From a virus (Duplodnaviria > Caudoviricetes), in IMG/VR virus record IMGVR_UViG_3300034341_000115, positions 1 to 28,163 of that record: a stretch of DNA of 28,163 nt; one strand, written 5' to 3'. Positions 18,926-28,163 of this stretch are shown piece by piece. The notes under the pieces are model-generated. The model saw nothing but the letters and a program-made list of their open reading frames with translations. It searched no databases and had not been told where the DNA came from. The translations under genes and the position numbers were made by a program. How positions within the stretch are numbered: the first letter of the stretch is position 1; each line of letters opens with the position of its first letter.

Positions 18926-19142
18926 AGAACTACTAGACGAGTTGATGGCTCTCACAATCGAAGAGCTACTGACCGTCATCAAGTCTGGAGAAGCAAATCC
19001 AGCAATCCTCAACGTAGCTAGGCAGCTACTCAAAGACAATCAAGTCACTGCCTCAGTCAAGGAAGACAGCCCTATGCAAAGTTTAGTAGAGGTGTTGCCG
19101 TTCCGTGAAGATGATGAACCAATCGCAGCCACAAATACCTAA
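18912..19142 (+). CDS. terS: Terminase small subunit, T7 gp18-like
   Basis: ATG 18912 after GGAG; IKSGEANPAILNVARQLLKDN and terminal LPF motif; directly upstream of terL. Confidence 0.85.
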   Translation: MAGNKELLDELMALTIEELLTVIKSGEANPAILNVARQLLKDNQVTASVKEDSPMQSLVEVLPFREDDEPIAATNT

Positions 19143-20796
19143 CGAACTCAAAGACTTTCGTAACTTCCTGTATTTCATTTGGCACTCGCTAGAACAGATC
19201 AAGCGTGACCCAACAGAGATACAGTACGATATCGCTGACTTCATGCAGCACGGTCCAAAGAGGGCTGTGGTACAGGGTTTTCGAGGAGTAGGCAAGTCTT
19301 GGATTTGTTCTGCGTTCGTAGTACACCAACTGTTCCTAGACCCAACTAAGAACATCCTTGTTGTCTCTGCATCGAAGACACGTTCTGATGACTTCTCTAC
19401 GTTCACGCTGAGACTTATTCATGACATCCCTATTCTGAGTTTCTTGAAGCCCAGTGCTGACCAGCGATTCTCTAAGGTGTCGTTTGATGTTGGACCGTCT
19501 GGAGCCTCTCACGCACCCTCTGTCAAATCATTAGGTATCACGTCACAGCTGACAGGTTCTCGTGCTGACATCATCATTGCTGATGACATTGAGGTAGCGA
19601 ACAACTCTGCTACACAGCAGATGAGAGACAAGCTATCAGAACAGGTAAAGGAGTTTGACGCTATTATCAAGCCCAACGATTCCTCTAGAATTATTGTTCT
19701 AGGAACTCCGCAATGTGAGGACAGTCTCTACAGTAAACTACAGGAACGAGGATTTACAACTAAGGTATGGTCTGCTGAGAAGGTAGACCCCAAGAAAGCG
19801 CTGAACACTTATGGAGACACACTGTCTACCCTCTGTATAGATGAAGATACCCAAGGCGATTCAGCCGAGCCTACACGTTTTACAGACTTTGATTTGCAGG
19901 AGCGAAAGATTTCTTACGGATCGGCTGGTTACGCTATGCAGTTCATGCTCAACCCCAACCTTGCTGACCTTGACCGCTATCCTCTTAAACTTGGCAACTT
20001 GGTTGTGCAAGATATTGACCCAGATGTTGCACCAGAGAAGCTAGTATGGGCGCAGACACCTGAGCTAGAATGGGAAAGACTTCCTAATGTAGGAATGAGA
20101 GGCGACCGCTTCTACAGACCGATGAAGATTCTAGGTGATATGATACCTTACACTGGGTCTGTTATGTCTATCGACCCCTCTGGTAGAGGTAAGGACGAGA
20201 CTGGCTACGCTGTAGTAAAGATGTGCAACGGAACTCTGTTTGTTCCAGAGGCTGGTGGACTCAAAGGCGGTTACGAAGAACCTACCTTGCTAGAACTAGT
20301 CCGTATCGCTAAGAGGAACAAGGTGAACGCTGTTATTACAGAGAGTAACTTCGGTGATGGTATGTTCACCCAGCTTATAACGCCCATATTTAGCCGAGAA
20401 TACCCCGTCACCCTTGAAGAGGTACGTCACCATCAACAGAAAGAGAAACGGATCATAGACACCCTTGAGCCTCTCCTAGCAGCTCACAGACTTGTTATAG
20501 CACCCTCTGTTATTGAGAACGACTACAAGACTGCACAAGGCTATCCAGCAGAACAACAACTCAGGTACATGATGATGTACCAGTTAACAAGATTAACAAG
20601 ACTCAGAGGAGCTTTAAGGAACGACGATAGACTTGATGCTCTTAGTATAGCTTGCAACTATTGGGTAGAACAAATGGCTCAAGATGCAGACATGAAGATT
20701 AAGGAACGAAGAGATGACCTAGCCTCTAAACAACTAGATGAATTCATGGATGCCTACTATAAGAGAACAACTAGATCACAGTCCTCTTGGATATAA
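19111..20796 (+). CDS. terL: Terminase large subunit, T7 gp19-like
   Basis: Walker A QGFRGVGKSW, TGSRADIIIADD Walker B, IDPSGRGKDETGY, ESNFGDGMF and DDRLDAL nuclease motifs. Exact start uncertain (GTG 19105, ATG 19111 or 19114). Confidence 0.96.
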   Translation: MMNQSQPQIPNELKDFRNFLYFIWHSLEQIKRDPTEIQYDIADFMQHGPKRAVVQGFRGVGKSWICSAFVVHQLFLDPTKNILVVSASKTRSDDFSTFTLRLIHDIPILSFLKPSADQRFSKVSFDVGPSGASHAPSVKSLGITSQLTGSRADIIIADDIEVANNSATQQMRDKLSEQVKEFDAIIKPNDSSRIIVLGTPQCEDSLYSKLQERGFTTKVWSAEKVDPKKALNTYGDTLSTLCIDEDTQGDSAEPTRFTDFDLQERKISYGSAGYAMQFMLNPNLADLDRYPLKLGNLVVQDIDPDVAPEKLVWAQTPELEWERLPNVGMRGDRFYRPMKILGDMIPYTGSVMSIDPSGRGKDETGYAVVKMCNGTLFVPEAGGLKGGYEEPTLLELVRIAKRNKVNAVITESNFGDGMFTQLITPIFSREYPVTLEEVRHHQQKEKRIIDTLEPLLAAHRLVIAPSVIENDYKTAQGYPAEQQLRYMMMYQLTRLTRLRGALRNDDRLDALSIACNYWVEQMAQDADMKIKERRDDLASKQLDEFMDAYYKRTTRSQSSWI

Positions 20797-20899
20797 TATA
20801 TATAATATATAAGGTCTAGTTCTTGACCTATAAATTAGGTCTGTAGGAGACGAGGTCTCCATCTCTAGTGCTAGCACCATCTCGTATTAGTATATAATA

Positions 20900-20927
20900 A
20901 TTATAAGAGCAGTTCTAAATCTGTCAA
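20900..20927 (-). promoter_or_regulatory. Leftward sigma70-type promoter
   Basis: Minus strand reads TTGACA-16 bp-TATAAT (plus strand TGTCAA 20922-20927, ATTATA 20900-20905). Confidence 0.65.
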
Positions 20928-20962
20928 GCACTCTTATCGGACAATCTTTTAAAACTTTTAGC

Positions 20963-20991
20963 TTGCAATTTGAAAGTTAGAACTTCATATT
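20963..20991 (+). promoter_or_regulatory. Rightward sigma70-type promoter for putative sRNA
   Basis: TTGCAA (20963-20968)-17 bp-CATATT (20986-20991). Confidence 0.5.
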
Positions 20992-20996
20992 GTCAT

Positions 20997-21081
20997 GAGC
21001 ATAATTTCAACGTGTGTGTGTTGTTATATGTGTGGGGGAGTCATTGCTGGGAATACTCGGTGGTGGCTCCCTTTTCTTTTT
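20997..21081 (+). ncRNA. Putative ~85-nt antisense small RNA
   Basis: Bounded by the promoter above and a terminator; GU-rich unstructured 5' part is complementary to the integrase leader 26944-26972. Confidence 0.5.
21036..21081 (+). terminator. Intrinsic terminator
   Basis: 16-bp stem GGGAGTCATTGCTGGG-AATA-CTCGGTGGTGGCTCCC, fully paired only with six G-U wobbles (so plus-strand RNA), followed by TTTTCTTTTT. Confidence 0.85.
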
Positions 21082-21646
21082 AGTATGCCCCTTGTACCCC
21101 CTCTCCAGTCCACAGCGGTTGTGAAGGGGCTTGGGGCTTCTTCTTGGTGAGAAATACAGGGTAGTTTTTCTCACTAATGCCTGCCTTTTTGTTTTTGTTA
21201 CAAAAATGTGAGAGGGTTTATATACGTGTGATTTACCGCTAACCCCCCATACACCCTTTCAGGGTGAGGATTGGCACAGCTTTCGTCACATAAAGGTCTA
21301 AAGACCTTTGTTTATCAGCTACTGCAACGGATTATAAATCCGATATAGCCTGTCAAACGCACAAGGAAGGCGTGTTTGAGAACTTTCGGTGTGGTTCACT
21401 CATCTTTTTCTACACAGATGTTTTTTTATTTTAGAGCGAAGCTCTAGTACCTCTCCAAGCATAAGACTTTAAAAGTCTTGAGGCGCACTGCGTCCGCATC
21501 ATTCCGCACTCATTATGCGATCACCGAACATGATCACGCACGAGGCAAAGCTCTCTCCAAAACTTTTTTCATCTTTTCGTATGGTATCCTGTGCATTATG
21601 CGCACGCTACGGCACGCTGAAAAAAGTCCTGTGGGTACGAGGCGAC

Positions 21647-21667: not shown

Positions 21668-21744
21668 TGGCGGCAACTCACTCCGAGTCAAGCCAAGCCA
21701 AGCACGGCACGACACACAATAACACACCAAGGAAACGCACAATT

Positions 21745-22116
21745 ATGGAAGCTACCCAAAAACAATGGTTCTCAGACTCACCCTTCGCAGAAGAGTTCAC
21801 TCAAGTTATCTTCGATAACGAATGCAGTAAGGCAAGCGAAGACTTCGTCTCATACACTGTCGGTGAAACCGATGAATCACCTGATGAACTTACGTTCAAA
21901 TTTGAGGTTGAAGACGAGGGGCGAAGCTCTCTCACCTTGACTCTTACCGAAGGTACGGTGGTGATAAATCACCTTATCCTTGATAAGGGTAACTCAGAGG
22001 TTACACCTCTTATTTGGTCGCTTAACGAAGACATCGACATCTTCCTTGAAGATTTAACGGATAAGCACGGCATCGACCTTGTCGAAGCTAAGTCTCACGG
22101 CACTGAAATCAAATAA
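21745..22116 (+). CDS. First early gene; highly acidic 123-aa protein (possible DNA mimic)
   Basis: ATG in the recurring CACAATTATG context; by my count 29 D/E versus 8 K/R. Confidence 0.7.
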   Translation: MEATQKQWFSDSPFAEEFTQVIFDNECSKASEDFVSYTVGETDESPDELTFKFEVEDEGRSSLTLTLTEGTVVINHLILDKGNSEVTPLIWSLNEDIDIFLEDLTDKHGIDLVEAKSHGTEIK

Positions 22117-22167
22117 TCACCCACAGTTTACACTCACAATTCCAATCACACAAAACAACACATAATT

Positions 22168-22470
22168 ATGAAGCAAATGTACAAATACTACGAAGTAGTC
22201 GCTAACTGCCAAACAGTCCTCTACGGTTCTTACGATCGAGACGAAGCCAAGTTCGAGCTGGAAGCTATGCGTGACACCTACAAGGAAGACGGATACAAAG
22301 GCGTAAAGCTTCGCTGGAGAGCTACTGAAGAAGCTCCAGATGTTGGCATCTATGGAAAGGCTTTTAAGCCTAAGATGGCGAAGGTGATAGCTGGCTATAA
22401 ACTACCAAAGGTAAGCTCTAACGTCGAACAAATTCAACACCAACTTGGGGCATCTCTGTTACCTTGGTAA
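22168..22470 (+). CDS. Early hypothetical protein
   Basis: 100 aa, CA-rich leader ending AATTATG; stop abuts ribozyme 1. Confidence 0.75.
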   Translation: MKQMYKYYEVVANCQTVLYGSYDRDEAKFELEAMRDTYKEDGYKGVKLRWRATEEAPDVGIYGKAFKPKMAKVIAGYKLPKVSSNVEQIQHQLGASLLPW

Positions 22471-22530
22471 CTAAGGCGAAACGGTCTTTAGACCGTCTGT
22501 TGGTAACCTTCCAGCACTGATGAGCCTAGT
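22470..22530 (+). ncRNA. Hammerhead ribozyme, type II (copy 1)
   Basis: AGGC-GAA-ACGGTC[TTTA]GACCGT-C^-TGTTGG[TAACCTT]CCAGCA-CTGATGA-GCCT; complete core; predicted cleavage after C22497. Confidence 0.92.
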
Positions 22531-22603
22531 ACACACAGATCAATCAAGACAAAGTAAGGTAGCGACTCTCGCCAAAAATCACACAATCCAAATCCACACA
22601 ATT

Positions 22604-23341
22604 ATGACCACAGTAAACACGAAGTTACTTTCAGTAAATGCCGATGCTAAAACAAGCAAAGGCTCTAACGCTGGATACCTTACAGGTATTCTTTACCTAG
22701 CTCCTGCTAACGAAGCCTCACCGAAGGTTAATATTTGTCCGTTCGCTTCAGATGGGTGCAGGGATGTGTGCTTATACAGTGCAGGGCGAGGCAAGATGGA
22801 CTCCGTAGTCAAAGCTAGGATAGCCAAAACCTTAAGGTTTCTCGAAGATCCGAAGGAGTTCGTAGAACTATTGGCAATCGACATTCAGAAAATCGTCAAC
22901 AAAGCCGCCAAGGTAGGCATGACACCTGCGATTCGACTGAATGGCACATCTGACCTGCCTTGGGAGAAGCTCGGCGGTAAACTTGGCGTAGCCTTGATGA
23001 ATAGGTTTCCAAGCGTAGCTTTCTACGATTACACGAAGAATCCTAACCGTGCTATAGCTCATGCCGAAGGCAAGATGCCAGACAATTACCACATTACTTT
23101 CAGTAAATCTGAGTGTAACGATGAAGCAGTTGCCAAGGTGGTTGAGGCAGGTGGTAACGTAGCCGCAGTTTTCAGCACGAAGAAGGCGGATGAACTGCCT
23201 GCAGATTACAACGGTCGTGAAGTGGTTGACGGTGATAAGACTGACCTACGGTTTCTCGATAAAAGCGGCGTCTTCGTTGGTCTTCGAGCTAAGGGCGATG
23301 CACGTAGTGATCGTTCTGGCTTCACCATCATACTTGACTAA
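22604..23341 (+). CDS. Conserved phage protein with C-x6-C-x3-C motif (GP88-like / Fe-S-binding candidate)
   Basis: GILYLAP...ICPFASDGCRDVCL...RLNGTSD...FYDYTK...DGDKTDLRFLD...GLRAKG. True start is probably ATG 22604; the ORF-track start at 22520 lies inside the ribozyme core. Confidence 0.7.
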   Translation: MTTVNTKLLSVNADAKTSKGSNAGYLTGILYLAPANEASPKVNICPFASDGCRDVCLYSAGRGKMDSVVKARIAKTLRFLEDPKEFVELLAIDIQKIVNKAAKVGMTPAIRLNGTSDLPWEKLGGKLGVALMNRFPSVAFYDYTKNPNRAIAHAEGKMPDNYHITFSKSECNDEAVAKVVEAGGNVAAVFSTKKADELPADYNGREVVDGDKTDLRFLDKSGVFVGLRAKGDARSDRSGFTIILD

Positions 23342-23394
23342 GGCGAAACGGTCGTAAGACCGTCTGGCGGTAACCTTCCGTCACTGACGAGCCT
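23337..23394 (+). ncRNA. Hammerhead ribozyme, type II (copy 2)
   Basis: AGGC-GAA-ACGGTC[GTAA]GACCGT-C^-TGGCGG[TAACCTT]CCGTCA-CTGACGA-GCCT; predicted cleavage after C23364. Confidence 0.92.
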
Positions 23395-23400
23395 GTTAGA

Positions 23401-23431
23401 TAATCACACAATCCAATCCTACACAACTATG
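23401..23431 (+). repeat. Leader repeat B, copy 1
   Basis: TAATCACACAATCCAATCCTACACAACTATG, 30/31 identical to 23645-23675; looser copies near 22577-22606 and 22131-22170. Confidence 0.9.
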
Positions 23432-23647
23432 ACACCTACAATATACAAACTCGCTTACGTTAACAACGTCATTAACAGAGAAGGCTACGTCCTTTTCCAA
23501 AACGACGGCAATGTAGACGTAGTCTATGAAACATTTGAGACGGAAGCAGACCTTCTTAGGTATGTAGGCAGATACTTCGAGAAGGTCGGCGAGATAACAG
23601 ACTATGGTCTGTATATTCGTAAAAGCTTTCACGATCTCAACAAATAA
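23429..23647 (+). CDS. Early hypothetical protein
   Basis: 72 aa flanked by two copies of leader repeat B. Confidence 0.7.
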   Translation: MTPTIYKLAYVNNVINREGYVLFQNDGNVDVVYETFETEADLLRYVGRYFEKVGEITDYGLYIRKSFHDLNK

Positions 23648-23675
23648 TCACACAATCCAATCCTACACAATTATG
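23645..23675 (+). repeat. Leader repeat B, copy 2
   Basis: TAATCACACAATCCAATCCTACACAATTATG, spanning exactly from stop codon to next start codon. Confidence 0.9.
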
Positions 23676-24080
23676 CAATCAGTAAAAAATCGCACTATAG
23701 ACAAGTCCAAACCTGTAAAGGTTTACTGGAATCTACACCGCAACTGCTATTCCGTTCAACAGAACGGTCTGGTAGTGGGTCATACTGACCATATCGAGCT
23801 TCGTGATGTTACCTTTAAGGTAAGCGAGGCAGGTCGGCAACGTGTCTTGAAAGAGCGCAGAAAGAATGTGCATGCTTTCGTTACAGGCTACTTGGACGAC
23901 TTGGATGCTATCCGCATCTGGTATGTAAAGATTGTTTACAATCCTTACAAGTATGACAGCTTTCGGCTCTGGGTTGACCCAACTGTGACTGTAAAGTCAT
24001 CCGAAGCAGTAGTTCTACGAACAAGGGACGGCAAAGGCTGTATCCTTTCGGAGCGTAAGATAGGCACACACTGTGCATAG
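23673..24080 (+). CDS. Conserved phage hypothetical protein
   Basis: ATG 23673 at end of repeat B; VYWNLH...FKVSEAGRQRVLKERRKNVHAFV.G...YNPYK motif pattern seen in diverse phages. Confidence 0.75.
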   Translation: MQSVKNRTIDKSKPVKVYWNLHRNCYSVQQNGLVVGHTDHIELRDVTFKVSEAGRQRVLKERRKNVHAFVTGYLDDLDAIRIWYVKIVYNPYKYDSFRLWVDPTVTVKSSEAVVLRTRDGKGCILSERKIGTHCA

Positions 24081-24137
24081 TCTGCGTAGTACAATCAAGA
24101 CAAAAGTAAAGTGGCGAAACTGCCGACAAAAATTATG
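24077..24137 (+). repeat. Intergenic repeat A, copy 1
   Basis: ATAGTCTGCGTAGTACAATCAAGACAAAAGTAAAGTGGCGAAACTGCCGACAAAAATTATG, from TAG stop to ATG. Confidence 0.9.
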
Positions 24138-24311
24138 CAAATGCGAAACACCATCACACTCCGCAAGCGAGAGGTCTATGGCAACGAACTGTTCTACGTA
24201 GTAGACAAGGATCAAGCCAAGGCTATCTCGATTCTAACGGGACAAAAGACGGTTACGGAACGTAACATCGGAGCTTTGAAGCTTCTCGGATACACCATCA
24301 CATACGTATAG
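24135..24311 (+). CDS. Small early hypothetical protein
   Basis: 58 aa between two copies of repeat A; EVYGNELFY...LTGQKT motif. Confidence 0.7.
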   Translation: MQMRNTITLRKREVYGNELFYVVDKDQAKAISILTGQKTVTERNIGALKLLGYTITYV

Positions 24312-24367
24312 TCTGCGTAGTACAATCAAGACAAAGTAAAGTGGCAATTCATGCCGACAAAATTATG
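24308..24367 (+). repeat. Intergenic repeat A, copy 2
   Basis: ATAGTCTGCGTAGTACAATCAAGACAAAGTAAAGTGGCAATTCATGCCGACAAAATTATG; partial third copy at 22541-22577. Confidence 0.9.
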
Positions 24368-24568
24368 GAAAAAGAAGACGCACTAATCCTAGCCTCACGT
24401 TACTACCTATGTGAGGAACTACCCGAAACATACGTTGACTTCGATGCCGACAAATTAGATCAGTTCCTTGAGTCTAACGCATGGCAACCGTTCGAGTTCT
24501 ACCCTGCAGTAGACATATGGGATTTGATCAACGACCTTGCTGACGAATTTGTTCGAGTAAGCAAGTAA
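24365..24568 (+). CDS. Small acidic early protein
   Basis: 67 aa from ATG 24365; about 17 D/E versus 5 K/R. Confidence 0.7.
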   Translation: MEKEDALILASRYYLCEELPETYVDFDADKLDQFLESNAWQPFEFYPAVDIWDLINDLADEFVRVSK

Positions 24569-24595
24569 CATTACACAACCACATATCATAACATC

Positions 24596-24775
24596 ATGCT
24601 CAATCAAATCCTATCTACCTGCAAGCAACTCAATCGCTTGCTCAAGACTAAAGACCCGTATCATTCCGACCTTGTGGCACAGCTACTTACGAAGATTGAA
24701 AACCAAATCCCATCCGAAAACCCTCAAGGGGTTGACAAGGATGCTATAGTGGAAGCTCTCAACAAAAACGACTAA
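24596..24775 (+). CDS. Small early hypothetical protein (not in ORF track)
   Basis: 59 aa MLNQILSTCKQLNRLL...EALNKND after a CA-rich leader; its GAC-TAA end is the 5' end of ribozyme 3, as for ribozyme 2. Confidence 0.6.
   Translation: MLNQILSTCKQLNRLLKTKDPYHSDLVAQLLTKIENQIPSENPQGVDKDAIVEALNKND
24732..24752 (+). promoter_or_regulatory. Second copy of early promoter-like motif
   Basis: TTGACAAGGATGCTATAGTGG (extended -10 TGCTATAGT), just upstream of ribozyme 3. Confidence 0.5.
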
Positions 24776-24831
24776 GGCGAAACAAGGCGCAATGCCTTGT
24801 CTGCTGGTAACCTTCCAGCACTGACGAGCCT
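24771..24831 (+). ncRNA. Hammerhead ribozyme, type II (copy 3)
   Basis: AGGC-GAA-ACAAGGC[GCAAT]GCCTTGT-C^-TGCTGG[TAACCTT]CCAGCA-CTGACGA-GCCT; predicted cleavage after C24801. Confidence 0.92.
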
Positions 24832-24866
24832 GTCAGCTTATACATAATCAGATACATATACTGCAC

Positions 24867-25853
24867 ATGAAACAAGACACATACATCGTAAACACACAAC
24901 AAAACGGCTGGTCACAAAAGATCACAGACACTATCAACTCTGTTGATGATATCGGACTCAATTGGGATGTTCAGAAGACACCTATGGTGGCACTACTCGA
25001 AGGCAAGTATCCTTTGCCTATCAATTCACACGTCAGCATCAATCGCTCTGACTCTAACGAGTCCATCGGAGTGGTCGGCTCTGGCTATGAGCCTATCCAA
25101 AACTCCCGTATCTGGGAAGCTTTGCACCAGTCACTGGAAGGCACGAAGCACGAAGTTGTAGGTGGTGGATACACTCACAACGGTGGTCGAGTGTTCGTTC
25201 AGACCAAGGTCTCAGACAAAGACTTCACCGTCAACGGAGATGCCTTCGATAACTACGTTACATTCTACAGCTCTCACGATGGTAGCTCTGCCTTCGAGAT
25301 GTTCGACACTAGTGTCCGTATGATTTGCCAGAACACTTTCCGTCTGGCTAAAAAGGAGGGAGGCAGAGCCTTCAAGCTCCGTGTTCGACACACTCGGAAC
25401 GCTTCAGTGCGATTCGAGAACGTCATGCAACACCTTGAGTCTATGTTCGACAACCGTAGGGTTGCTTATGAGAAGCTTAACCGCACTACCGAAACTCCTA
25501 TGGCTTATCCAGAGATGATTGCTTGGGCAACTTCGTTCTTCAACAAGTCCAACAAGCTGTCTACTGTAAGTAGTAACAAGGCTCACGAGGCTCGTCGGCT
25601 TGCCATCGGTGGTATAGGCAACAACGGTCGGACATCCTACGACATGTTCAACGGAGTCACGGAGCTACTCACTCACGGCGACCGTCAAACATCCAAGGAT
25701 CGCTCCGCAATCTGGCGTTCGTCAGAGCTAGGAGCAGGTGCTGTACAGAAGGCATCTGCCTTGGAGCAGTTGCACAATATCAACAACCGCACAGCTCACA
25801 TCAACAGAGGTCGTGAGCTTATCAACACTGGCGAGACTTTGCTGTCTGCATAA
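24867..25853 (+). CDS. DUF932/DUF945-family phage/plasmid protein
   Basis: GLNWDV, GVVGSGYEPIQN, SHDGSSA, VRMICQNT, RHT and YDMFNGVTELLTH motifs. Confidence 0.8.
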   Translation: MKQDTYIVNTQQNGWSQKITDTINSVDDIGLNWDVQKTPMVALLEGKYPLPINSHVSINRSDSNESIGVVGSGYEPIQNSRIWEALHQSLEGTKHEVVGGGYTHNGGRVFVQTKVSDKDFTVNGDAFDNYVTFYSSHDGSSAFEMFDTSVRMICQNTFRLAKKEGGRAFKLRVRHTRNASVRFENVMQHLESMFDNRRVAYEKLNRTTETPMAYPEMIAWATSFFNKSNKLSTVSSNKAHEARRLAIGGIGNNGRTSYDMFNGVTELLTHGDRQTSKDRSAIWRSSELGAGAVQKASALEQLHNINNRTAHINRGRELINTGETLLSA

Positions 25854-25870: not shown

Positions 25871-25906
25871 AAATGTCCTGAGCATGACAATAAACTGCTC
25901 ACATTT
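25871..25906 (+). promoter_or_regulatory. H-type RNA pseudoknot / alternative hairpin in gene leader
   Basis: S1 TGTC/GACA, L1 C, S2 TGAGCA/TGCTCA, L3 ATAAAC; ends 9 nt before ATG 25911. Confidence 0.55.
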
Positions 25907-26096: not shown

Positions 26097-26116
26097 GCAA
26101 CCACAATAACACACAT

Positions 26117-26398
26117 ATGAAATACGTAATCAAACTACCTAAGCAAGCAGGCTACCTGTGTCATGCTGGAACTAATCGTGTCGTTATATACGACAACGCA
26201 ACAAGCTACCCTATTGGGATGGATGTGATGGCGTGTAACGGCGAGCGTAAGGCTCTCGAAGGGGACACCCTTCATACTGTCTTTGTGTCGGGCTGGTATG
26301 ACAACAACATCGACGAGATTGAATGTCCTATTAAATCATTACATGATTTCAAAGACTTCTTTAGCGAGTATGACGAGCCTACCGTATACCTACCCTAG
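26117..26398 (+). CDS. Early hypothetical protein
   Basis: 93 aa with CA-rich leader; followed by a terminator. Confidence 0.7.
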   Translation: MKYVIKLPKQAGYLCHAGTNRVVIYDNATSYPIGMDVMACNGERKALEGDTLHTVFVSGWYDNNIDEIECPIKSLHDFKDFFSEYDEPTVYLP

Positions 26399-26509: not shown

Positions 26510-26869
26510 ATGCACGAGCCTAAACCCCAATGTCCTCAATTTCGTAGCATTCTTGAACAGTATTTAAGTATTATTTACTACACAAAAGACAAAAAGACAA
26601 ACCTTGAACCTCTCCTCAAGAATAAAAGGAATCATGACATTGCCATCTTATCATTGGTTTACCTTAAGCAACCGATCAATATGACTGCCCTTAAAAATCT
26701 TTTGCTTTGTTCTTCTAGAACATTTGATGCTTGTGTAATCAAGCTACATGAACTTGGTTTCCTTATTATATCTGACAGTAAAGAGGACAAAAGAACCAAG
26801 CTTTTACGCATAACACCGCACACTTACGCTAGTCTTAGTAAATTCATACACGGTATTTACAACTTTTAA
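26510..26869 (+). CDS. MarR-like winged-helix transcriptional regulator
   Basis: KLHELGFLIISDSKEDKRTKLLRIT matches the MarR wing motif (L...G......D.R...L.LT); adjacent to the integrase. Confidence 0.7.
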   Translation: MHEPKPQCPQFRSILEQYLSIIYYTKDKKTNLEPLLKNKRNHDIAILSLVYLKQPINMTALKNLLLCSSRTFDACVIKLHELGFLIISDSKEDKRTKLLRITPHTYASLSKFIHGIYNF

Positions 26870-26915: not shown

Positions 26916-26944
26916 TTGACATAGATGGTTCTATGTTTTAACTT
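26916..26944 (+). promoter_or_regulatory. Sigma70-type promoter of integrase
   Basis: TTGACA (26916-26921)-17 bp-TAACTT (26939-26944); GGAGG SD at 26960-26964. Confidence 0.55.
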
Positions 26945-26969
26945 ATAACACACACACACGGAGGAACTT

Positions 26970-28061
26970 ATGAAGATAAGAAGGAGAGGCAAGAGCTGGC
27001 AGGCTGATGCACACATAGAAGGCAAGCGAGTTCGCAGACTATTCAAGAGTCTGGCGGATGCCGAAGACTTTGTTACTAACCTAGAGCATCGCTCTAAACT
27101 AGGACTGAAAGTCACGCACATACTCAGCACGAAGAATGCGAGCCTAACCCTGAAGGGTCTAACCGATACTGTTTATGAAGCAGTATGGAAGGACACAGCT
27201 AACGGCATCAATGCGCTACGCAACGTAGAGTTAATCCAAAAGATTGTTGGCACTAACATTAGGGTTGAGGAAATCAACACGATAGTGATTGATGAAATCA
27301 TCCAGACCTTAAAGAACCAAGGCAACAGCAACGGCACAATCAACAACAAGATGTCTGCTCTCATGGTATGCCTGAAGTATGCACACGACAGGGACTGGAT
27401 ACAGAACGTGCCTAAGTTCAAACGATACAAGGCATCCGAAGGTAGGCTACGATACTTCTCGCCCGAAGAGGAGGAGATGATCATCTCTACCAACAAAAGG
27501 CTAGGACAGGAAGACTTCGCTAGCTTCGTGAAGGTTCTCATAGATACGGGATTGCGTACGGGTGAGCTTTGCCGTGTTCAATACAAGGACGTCGTGAAGG
27601 AATCTAACAGGTGGAAGATGTATGTATGGGCGAGAGGACACGACTACAGAACTAAGAACGGAGAGATGCGTATCGTTCCACTATCGGATGAGGTCGTAGA
27701 GATTATGACTAACAAGTGGAATGCGCTTGACATAAACTCTACCCATCCTACTATAGATAATAGTATTACTTCTATTGCACACCGTAATAGTAAAGTTTTT
27801 AACTACACTAAATCTAACATACGCACACAATGGAACAACGTCCGTGACATACTGGGCTACATGGATGACGAGGAGTTTGTTCCTCACCTGTGTAGACACA
27901 CCTGCGCTACTCGCTTAGTGCAAGCAGGAGTCCCACTACTCGCAGTCAAAGACTGGATGGGACACAAGTCTATACAAGTCACGATGCGCTACGCCAAGCT
28001 AGCACCTGACGCTGTCTTTGACGCTCTCGATACACTCAACAAGAAACGAAAAAACAAATAA
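26970..28061 (+). CDS. int: Tyrosine recombinase / phage integrase
   Basis: DTGLRTGEL, TKNG, PHLCRHTCATRL, MGH and RY catalytic R-K-H-R-H-Y set; N-terminal arm-binding-like domain. Confidence 0.93.
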   Translation: MKIRRRGKSWQADAHIEGKRVRRLFKSLADAEDFVTNLEHRSKLGLKVTHILSTKNASLTLKGLTDTVYEAVWKDTANGINALRNVELIQKIVGTNIRVEEINTIVIDEIIQTLKNQGNSNGTINNKMSALMVCLKYAHDRDWIQNVPKFKRYKASEGRLRYFSPEEEEMIISTNKRLGQEDFASFVKVLIDTGLRTGELCRVQYKDVVKESNRWKMYVWARGHDYRTKNGEMRIVPLSDEVVEIMTNKWNALDINSTHPTIDNSITSIAHRNSKVFNYTKSNIRTQWNNVRDILGYMDDEEFVPHLCRHTCATRLVQAGVPLLAVKDWMGHKSIQVTMRYAKLAPDAVFDALDTLNKKRKNK

Positions 28062-28088
28062 ACACACCAGAAATAAACTGAGAGTTGC

Positions 28089-28118
28089 TGTCACAAGTTG
28101 ACCCACTAAATTGTGACA
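28089..28118. repeat. Inverted repeat downstream of integrase (candidate att/arm or operator site)
   Basis: TGTCACAA-14 bp-TTGTGACA perfect inverted repeat. Confidence 0.5.
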
Positions 28119-28163
28119 ATATAAACTCACATAAGCGCACACCCTAGAAGTGAACCGAGAGTT

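Follow-up and report, generated by a model that had tools for sequence, protein, structure and literature searches.

The window, by which is meant the whole stretch of 28,163 nucleotides analyzed, is part of the genome of a T7-like phage, a fragment of 28 kb in which portal, capsid, tail and terminase genes run up to position 20796. Past the terminase large subunit gene, the last late gene (19105–20796, plus strand; PHROG 38, E 5e-110; PF22530), come the intergenic stretch that holds the element considered here (20963–21081), early genes from 21745 onward, a MarR-like gene and a tyrosine integrase gene (26970–28061, plus strand; PHROG 1, PF00589). In relatives, the integrase gene is followed by a small open reading frame (ORF), usually a tRNA-Leu(CAA) gene (present at nine of the 15 loci scanned) and genes for a T7-like RNA polymerase, SSB, an endonuclease and a primase-helicase. 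(The SSB and endonuclease labels are readings of ORFs, and the positions of polymerase, tRNA and primase-helicase, all beyond the end of the contig, are known from the relatives.) This is the gene set of a temperate T7-like (Autographiviridae-like) phage, with T7 genes, an integrase beside the RNA polymerase and a tRNA attachment site. The nearest phage record by terminase is the uncultured MedDCM-OCT-S45-C18 (64%), the best phage-record match of the integrase is LUZ100 (34%), and a search for a host or prophage in GTDB genomes with the integrase gave one weak, unrelated match only. The last stretch of the window, after the integrase (28062–28163), is unlike G001 and G002 in having no small coiled-coil ORF; the contig ends there, perhaps at an attachment site.

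The MarR-like winged-helix gene (26510–26869, plus strand) scores below cut-off (PF13463, E 0.027; PF01047, E 0.04), and its L001 homolog gives E 2e-4. Such genes are present in the window, L001, G002, L267 and L274, and are not found in G001, G010 and L265. Before integrases that are 79–99% identical, this slot either is empty or holds one of at least two distinct MarR-like genes (those of the window and of L013:3261–3701, L274:9676–10038 and L267:7219–7572), and in one MarR type the ORF overlaps the integrase start. Three repeats resembling type II hammerhead ribozymes lie between early genes (22474–22530, 23341–23398 and 24775–24842, plus strand; 28–34 bits, cut-off 37), with one to three copies in six relatives, and may process the transcripts of early genes; Agrobacterium has already been described as having tandem hammerheads close to marR and integrase genes, according to the available part of one report (PMC3088659). 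A conserved 26-nt motif directly after the DUF932 gene (25875–25900, plus strand), found in nine of 33 records including the distant G043 and without an Rfam match, is possibly another RNA processing element.

Relatives were drawn from the best 80 of 433 matches in the terminase scan and the best 80 of 464 in the primase scan, G000 being the window alone. The target tests exclude G019 and G053, whose cores are the same as those of G015 and G031, G030, which is without a primase, and eight genomes with no acidic-ORF match, in which the core is undefined (G016, G021, G026, G027, G029, G045, G048 and G059). In distant genomes, the limits of the core were set by visual inspection. A simple caller supplied the gene starts; it omits internal ones and mis-called some, such as that of the G002 integrase.

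Architecture and conservation of the element

The element begins with the promoter that the original prediction had described, TTGCAA (20963–20968) and CATATT (20986–20991) separated by 17 nt; as a plus-strand sigma70-like promoter (20963–20991) it is weak, with 8/12 consensus positions at a scan threshold of 9. The GU-rich stretch that follows had been called unstructured, which is not correct, since the core (20999–21033, plus strand) forms a weak hairpin of −6.2 kcal/mol that leaves a GUGUGU loop open. Then comes the intrinsic terminator (21034–21081, plus strand), consisting of a hairpin at 21034–21073 and a T-run to 21081, and here the 16 bp with six G-U pairs were found as described, pairing well as plus-strand RNA only. 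The fold of 20963–21090 has z = −3.8 on the plus strand versus −1.5 on the minus strand. In being intergenic and non-coding and ending in an intrinsic terminator, the element resembles genes of trans-encoded base-pairing sRNAs, and 20963–21081 is likely the gene for a multi-target antisense sRNA of ~85 nt acting in trans. A peptide reading (a 51-aa ORF, 20995–21150) was rejected, the ORF being present in one of seven genomes checked and having no family match. No Rfam family matched over the element at threshold; the best was BTnc201, at 20 bits versus a cut-off of 105.

Among the best 80 of 433 terminase matches, a core of ~34 nt follows the terminase gene in all 17 contigs whose terminase is at least 94% identical. 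When the viral collection was scanned by pattern, 20 matches came up, 18 of them in these close relatives; the other two (L112 and L114) were dropped for their unrelated context. In 13 aligned sequences, 22/34 core positions are invariant, as compared with 1/17 in the promoter spacer and 3/38 in the terminator. The TTG of the promoter is unchanged in all 13, and the terminator is exchangeable, seven sequences sharing the hairpin of the window and six having an unrelated one. Selection is thus indicated, from this alignment, to act on the core and not on its flanks. The same order of acidic ORF, U/G-rich stretch, hairpin and end motif recurs with different sequence in twelve records with terminases 64–73% identical, and integrase-less relatives, including the near-complete G028 and G031, retain both the layout and the primase pairing described below. 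The sRNA promoter scores 9–10/12 in four distant genomes (G004, G046, G049 and G052) and was not found in seven of 16 genomes, namely G001, L274 and five integrase-less ones.

Upstream, a short remnant (20933–20962, plus strand) marks an acidic ORF of ~82 aa, complete at this place in relatives and lost by deletion from the window and L023. Most relatives encode the acidic protein between terminase and sRNA (L002:4931–5179 and homologs), and it belongs to no Pfam family. Further upstream lies a perfect (12/12) sigma70-type promoter (20900–20927, minus strand), divergent from the sRNA promoter and directed leftward to the terminase gene. It is present in 11 of 16 genomes, all 11 of integrase lineages and none of five integrase-less ones, in a tally that spans few clades and in which the integrase region of G046 is not covered. 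The stretch that it would transcribe (20927–20800, minus strand) has a conserved 5' part and a weak terminator-like site at 20829–20812, and may yield either a second RNA of ~90 nt or a transcript that runs antisense into the terminase gene. No consistent trans target of this leftward RNA was seen at gene starts in 11 genomes. The conserved 5' motif was also considered as a phage promoter and rejected, as it is not repeated before late genes.

Downstream, a conserved motif (21196–21240) is the probable start of the terminal repeat, since the first base of the G003 and G010 contigs falls no more than 1 nt from 21227–21228, although the contig of G052 begins inside the core, which speaks against this placement. 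T7 genomes enter the cell in a set order. The contig starts of G003 and G010 suggest that the sRNA locus lies a short way in from the right end of the packaged DNA and enters last. The ~115 nt of the window between terminator and end motif (21082–21195) are missing in most relatives, and G008 has a different insert there.

Predicted targets

Where would such an RNA bind? Ranked by strict helix, the top three sites of the window are the DUF932 start, the integrase start and the start of early gene 26117. At the DUF932 start (24863–24884, plus strand), 20 bp with two 1x1 mismatches extend over the AUG, making this the best strict helix of all; the leader of gene 26117 (26100–26119, plus strand) holds the third, with a net binding of −16.5. 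The CA-rich leaders of early genes 21745, 22168, 22604, 23673 and 24596 (within 21720–24600, plus strand) are also predicted targets, with −14.0 to −19.6, as compared with −1.6 to −8.4 by the same measure for six late genes. The AATTATG start context that had been noted at early genes is indeed present at six early starts. The pairing of the MarR-like gene is predicted to be weak (−9.0).

It had been cautioned that CA repeats inflate chance complementarity, and this holds in part. With opening costs included, the mean is −18.0 over eight early and integrase starts of the window, as compared with −5.2 over eight late ones; early starts are preferred by shuffled cores as well (−12.6 versus −7.2), but less strongly, and only 2/218 reach the early value of the real core. 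Composition thus accounts for some of this preference, and the order of the bases for a further share. G001–G003 show the same bias, which fades in distant genomes, being absent in G028, G031 and G046 and marginal in G052. Exact 11-nt matches are enriched at gene starts in G001, G003, G008, L267 and L274 (P 0.003–0.04); no such enrichment was seen in the window (0.21), G004 (0.12), G002 or eight of nine distant genomes. Repeated CA-rich leader modules stand before early genes (22574–22617, 23399–23442, 23643–23686 and 22112–22155; 24077–24104 and 24308–24335). They are likely to be both recombination points for gene swapping and the motif that the sRNA would read.

The integrase translation-initiation region (26944–26972, plus strand) is a predicted target by duplex energy, by shuffling and by the leaders of relatives. 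The proposed pairing of 21011–21028 with 26944–26960 is there, as 17 bp with one bulge, and so is the flanking pairing over the start codon, giving about 26–28 bp in total and −32.8 kcal/mol, the best plus-strand site in the window (the next has −27.1). Shuffled controls sustain this at the site itself, where none of 2000 shuffled cores and none of 2000 shuffled leaders reach −32.8, and none of 218 shuffled cores match the site when opening costs are included. The whole-window comparison, which is the fair one, is weaker: 52 shuffled cores average −27.6 ± 2.1 with a best of −34.3, and at least one of the 52 equals or beats the real site. Since shuffled cores given the whole window sometimes match, the window alone gives roughly p 0.02–0.04, modestly beyond chance. 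A promoter-like site of the integrase gene (26916–26944, plus strand), recognized by sequence and by a TTGACA that 11 of 23 leaders of relatives have 54–58 nt ahead of the start codon, predicts an mRNA start near 26950, inside the match, so that 11 of the 17 bp would be left in that transcript; net binding then drops to −16.7 from −20.9.

The sequence ACACACAC is kept in 16 of 17 distinct integrase leaders (from 23 loci), in spite of differences in the DNA upstream and in the spacer that leads to the start codon; in L274 (integrase 79% identical) the leader is rewritten and is still the best-pairing site there. In G002, L267 and L274, the (AC)n repeat doubles as MarR codons. In six of seven close genomes, the integrase start is one of the three best-pairing gene starts (1/30, 2/52, 3/27, 1/30 and 1/23 in five), that of G002 being top-ranked under a mis-called start; it ranks low in G001 (22/49) and G004 (11/37). 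By strict helix, its ranks in five genomes are 25, 96, 343, 350 and 568. Swapping own for other cores gives a borderline result (P 0.035 with nine, 0.058 with five), and the pairing was not seen in distant lineages. The sole exception among the leaders is the lineage of G001 and L269, which lacks the integrase site and the tRNA-Leu, yet keeps the RNA element. In this lineage (G001:36620–37960 and L269), the integrase ORF is intact, and the MarR gene, integrase promoter, leader and tRNA-Leu site are missing; it is possibly a lytic derivative. Comparison of the sequences thus supports well a predicted sRNA directed at the integrase and CA-rich early starts. The integrase-centered framing of the original prediction is too narrow, since G001 and L269 keep the RNA without the integrase site, integrase-less relatives keep the layout, and the primase covaries best.

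On the best reading of these comparisons, the primase-helicase gene is the most conserved predicted target, ahead of the integrase. The longest complements in complete relatives fall on primase codons 7–11 and on the leader of what is probably an internal start for the helicase, assumed by analogy with T7 gp4B. Eleven of 15 genomes, G004 and four integrase-less ones (G015, G017, G028 and G031) with cores unrelated in sequence among them, have one of their five best sites by strict ungapped score in the first 260 nt of the primase gene; shuffles as good as the real pairing number 1–49 of 500 in these 11. The pairing was not seen in the four distant genomes G043, G046, G049 and G052 (392–495 of 500 shuffles as good), so that a conserved core with covarying complementarity to distant mRNAs is found for the primase in 11 of 15 genomes and not in four. 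When own cores are compared with those of other genomes, P = 0.002 (seven genomes) or 0.008 (five distinct cores), values that are optimistic since the genomes are related and since the primase was chosen after inspection and then tested partly on the same genomes. Swaps across lineages give P 0.0065 (seven), or 0.045 once the close clade is removed, and the control genes (RNA polymerase, terminase, portal, capsid and DUF932) P 0.19–0.5.

Paired changes can be followed base by base. Compared with the window, G001 has C for U at one core position and an extra AU in the core; its primase site has AGT for AAT and CAT for CAC, each of which restores a Watson-Crick pair with the changed core. Further matched changes of core and primase are found in G003 and L274. 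Primase codons 8–11 are identical in 12, 12, 11 and 11 of 12 haplotypes, respectively, and 115 of 414 comparable codons are uniform. The core of G002 pairs poorly with the N-terminal primase site (rank 17/46). The start of the RNA polymerase gene, with a mean of −13.9, does not count as a target. The gene next in line (SSB-like by ORF reading) has its start ranked first to fifth as a predicted target in five close genomes (G002:7579, G003:8417, G008:11159, L267:11459 and L274:13926).

Mode of action and alternative readings

What would such an RNA do? Sequence comparison provides the layout, the selection on the core, the complementarity to early and replication starts that spares late ones, and the paired core–primase changes; from these we infer that the RNA is made, how it pairs and represses, and when. 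The open GUGUGU loop would seed on CA-rich leaders, the 5' CAUAAU would extend the pairing over AUG contexts, and initiation would be blocked at the integrase, primase-helicase and early starts, as GcvB does at ACA enhancers. Because the sRNA locus would enter the cell last, the integrase and early genes would get a head start. Once the host polymerase reached the right end, or by constitutive expression from the prophage, the sRNA would stop replication and further recombination, and the divergent leftward promoter would oppose the terminase operon. Antisense silencing as such, whether it serves dormancy or lytic shut-off, is probably the correct mechanism; its combination with a role in keeping the phage dormant or as a prophage has close to an even chance. 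That T7-like cyanophages integrate without stable lysogeny, in the available account (PMC8776855), counts against the dormancy role, as do the integrase-less phages that keep the element.

These same phages support a lytic use of the same antisense RNA, which would be made late, either from its own promoter or by way of the terminase transcript, of which it would form the 3' end, and would shut off translation of early, integrase and primase-helicase genes at the time of packaging. G015, G017, G028 and G031 keep element and primase pairing without an integrase or a clear sigma70 promoter, the element ends the late operon, and late starts are spared. Integrase lineages, however, have host-type promoters at this place, one of them perfect and aimed against the terminase gene that packaging needs. 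It is the distribution of this leftward promoter, in 11/11 integrase-lineage and 0/5 integrase-less genomes, that favors dormancy over late shut-off, and the lytic use is accordingly held to be somewhat unlikely.

A simpler view is that nothing but the terminator of the late operon lies here, with a conserved GU-rich 3' tail whose match to CA leaders reflects base composition. The weak promoter, the preference of shuffled cores for early leaders, the shuffled best of −34.3 in the genome-wide search and the four distant genomes without a self-target all agree with this. A bare terminator is nevertheless hard to reconcile with a hairpin that is exchangeable beside an invariant core, with paired core–primase changes and a swap test that has negative controls, or with an integrase site that 218 shuffles did not match, and this view is considered unlikely.

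The sRNA might also be real and have its main targets in mRNAs of the host or of co-infecting phages, or work as a sponge that binds a host RNA or protein; self-pairing would then be secondary. Such targets would suit G043, G046, G049 and G052, which keep the layout (three of them with a 9–10/12 promoter) and have no clear target of their own, and cores do pair well with the leaders of close relatives; that own primase pairs beat swapped ones makes this quite improbable. A DNA-level signal for packaging or the terminal repeat, or a gene start on the minus strand, is barely credible: the element does have the terminase gene on one side and the probable terminal repeat on the other, and its reverse complement resembles an early-gene leader, but the core is wholly different between lineages and yet tracks a distant mRNA site, no minus-strand ORF is conserved in the aligned sequences, and the G-U pairs favor plus-strand RNA.

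Relation to known systems

The predicted sRNA does not fall into the class of cis-encoded antisense RNAs such as sar, OOP and aQ, which lie opposite a fully complementary target, its predicted targets lying 0.7–6 kb away or more and the longest exact match in the window being 11 nt. The C4 RNA of P1 and P7 and the CI RNA of P4 are, like it, trans-acting phage RNAs with short, split complementarity, and they confer immunity; they differ in being processed, structured and directed at an antirepressor or at their own operon. Both have Rfam families, and neither model matched over the element at threshold.

There is a close likeness to GcvB, a multi-target trans-acting sRNA described as silencing ACA translation enhancers just upstream of the Shine-Dalgarno sequence (PMC3879156, in its available part). 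Here, too, a GU-rich core is predicted to pair with ACA-rich elements in the same position before the ribosome-binding site. The resemblance is one of working only, since GcvB is enterobacterial, Hfq-dependent, chromosomal and concerned with amino-acid transport, whereas the RNA considered here is phage-borne, aimed at the phage's own genes and without an Rfam match. Phage RNAs that repress mRNAs of their own phage in the choice between lysis and lysogeny include sar of P22, OOP and aQ of lambda and 24B_1 of an Stx phage (PMC12197685); as presented in the accessible text of that review, each acts on one regulator (ant, cII, Q and, as proposed, d_ant) in a lambdoid phage, in contrast to many distant targets in a T7-like one. 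VpdS of VP882 and PreS of lambda are likewise trans-acting phage sRNAs that affect phage replication, but they promote lytic growth, largely via host targets or Hfq, as far as the same text goes (PMC12197685), instead of the own-gene repression predicted here. No such RNA in T7-like phages was found in the literature searched, mostly main texts of non-subscription papers; a further 38 undescribed sRNAs are tabulated in Table S1 of PMC12197685.

LUZ100 resembles the window in having a MarR-like gene, a tyrosine integrase and then an RNA polymerase (PMC10134795). Its model, in the available portion of that paper, is a protein repressor of the polymerase promoter, with antisense RNA reported in the structural region only and no mention of an sRNA or ncRNA (PMC10134795). 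The MarR switch for integrase-bearing T7-like phages is there a hypothetical one, and it was the only account of control in temperate T7-like phages found in the literature searched, as given in the accessible part of PMC10134795. In the present group, by contrast, MarR comes and goes among close relatives and the RNA element stays. A tentative and rather doubtful proposal is a T7-like lineage kept dormant by RNA and not by a protein repressor. A right-end cassette with two divergent host promoters would encode a GcvB-like sRNA that had co-evolved with the phage's own CA-rich enhancers and silenced the primase-helicase, integrase and early genes together, the second promoter would oppose the terminase operon, the order of entry would serve as a timer, and superinfection immunity would be a by-product.

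Integrase genes are carried by 625 of 1143 marine populations, in the available part of one survey (PMC12361551). With a defined RNA, named targets and natural compensatory alleles, control at the RNA level can be tested by simple reporters even without a host. If the prediction is true, the phage would read a shared motif in its own leaders and thereby turn off a whole class of genes.
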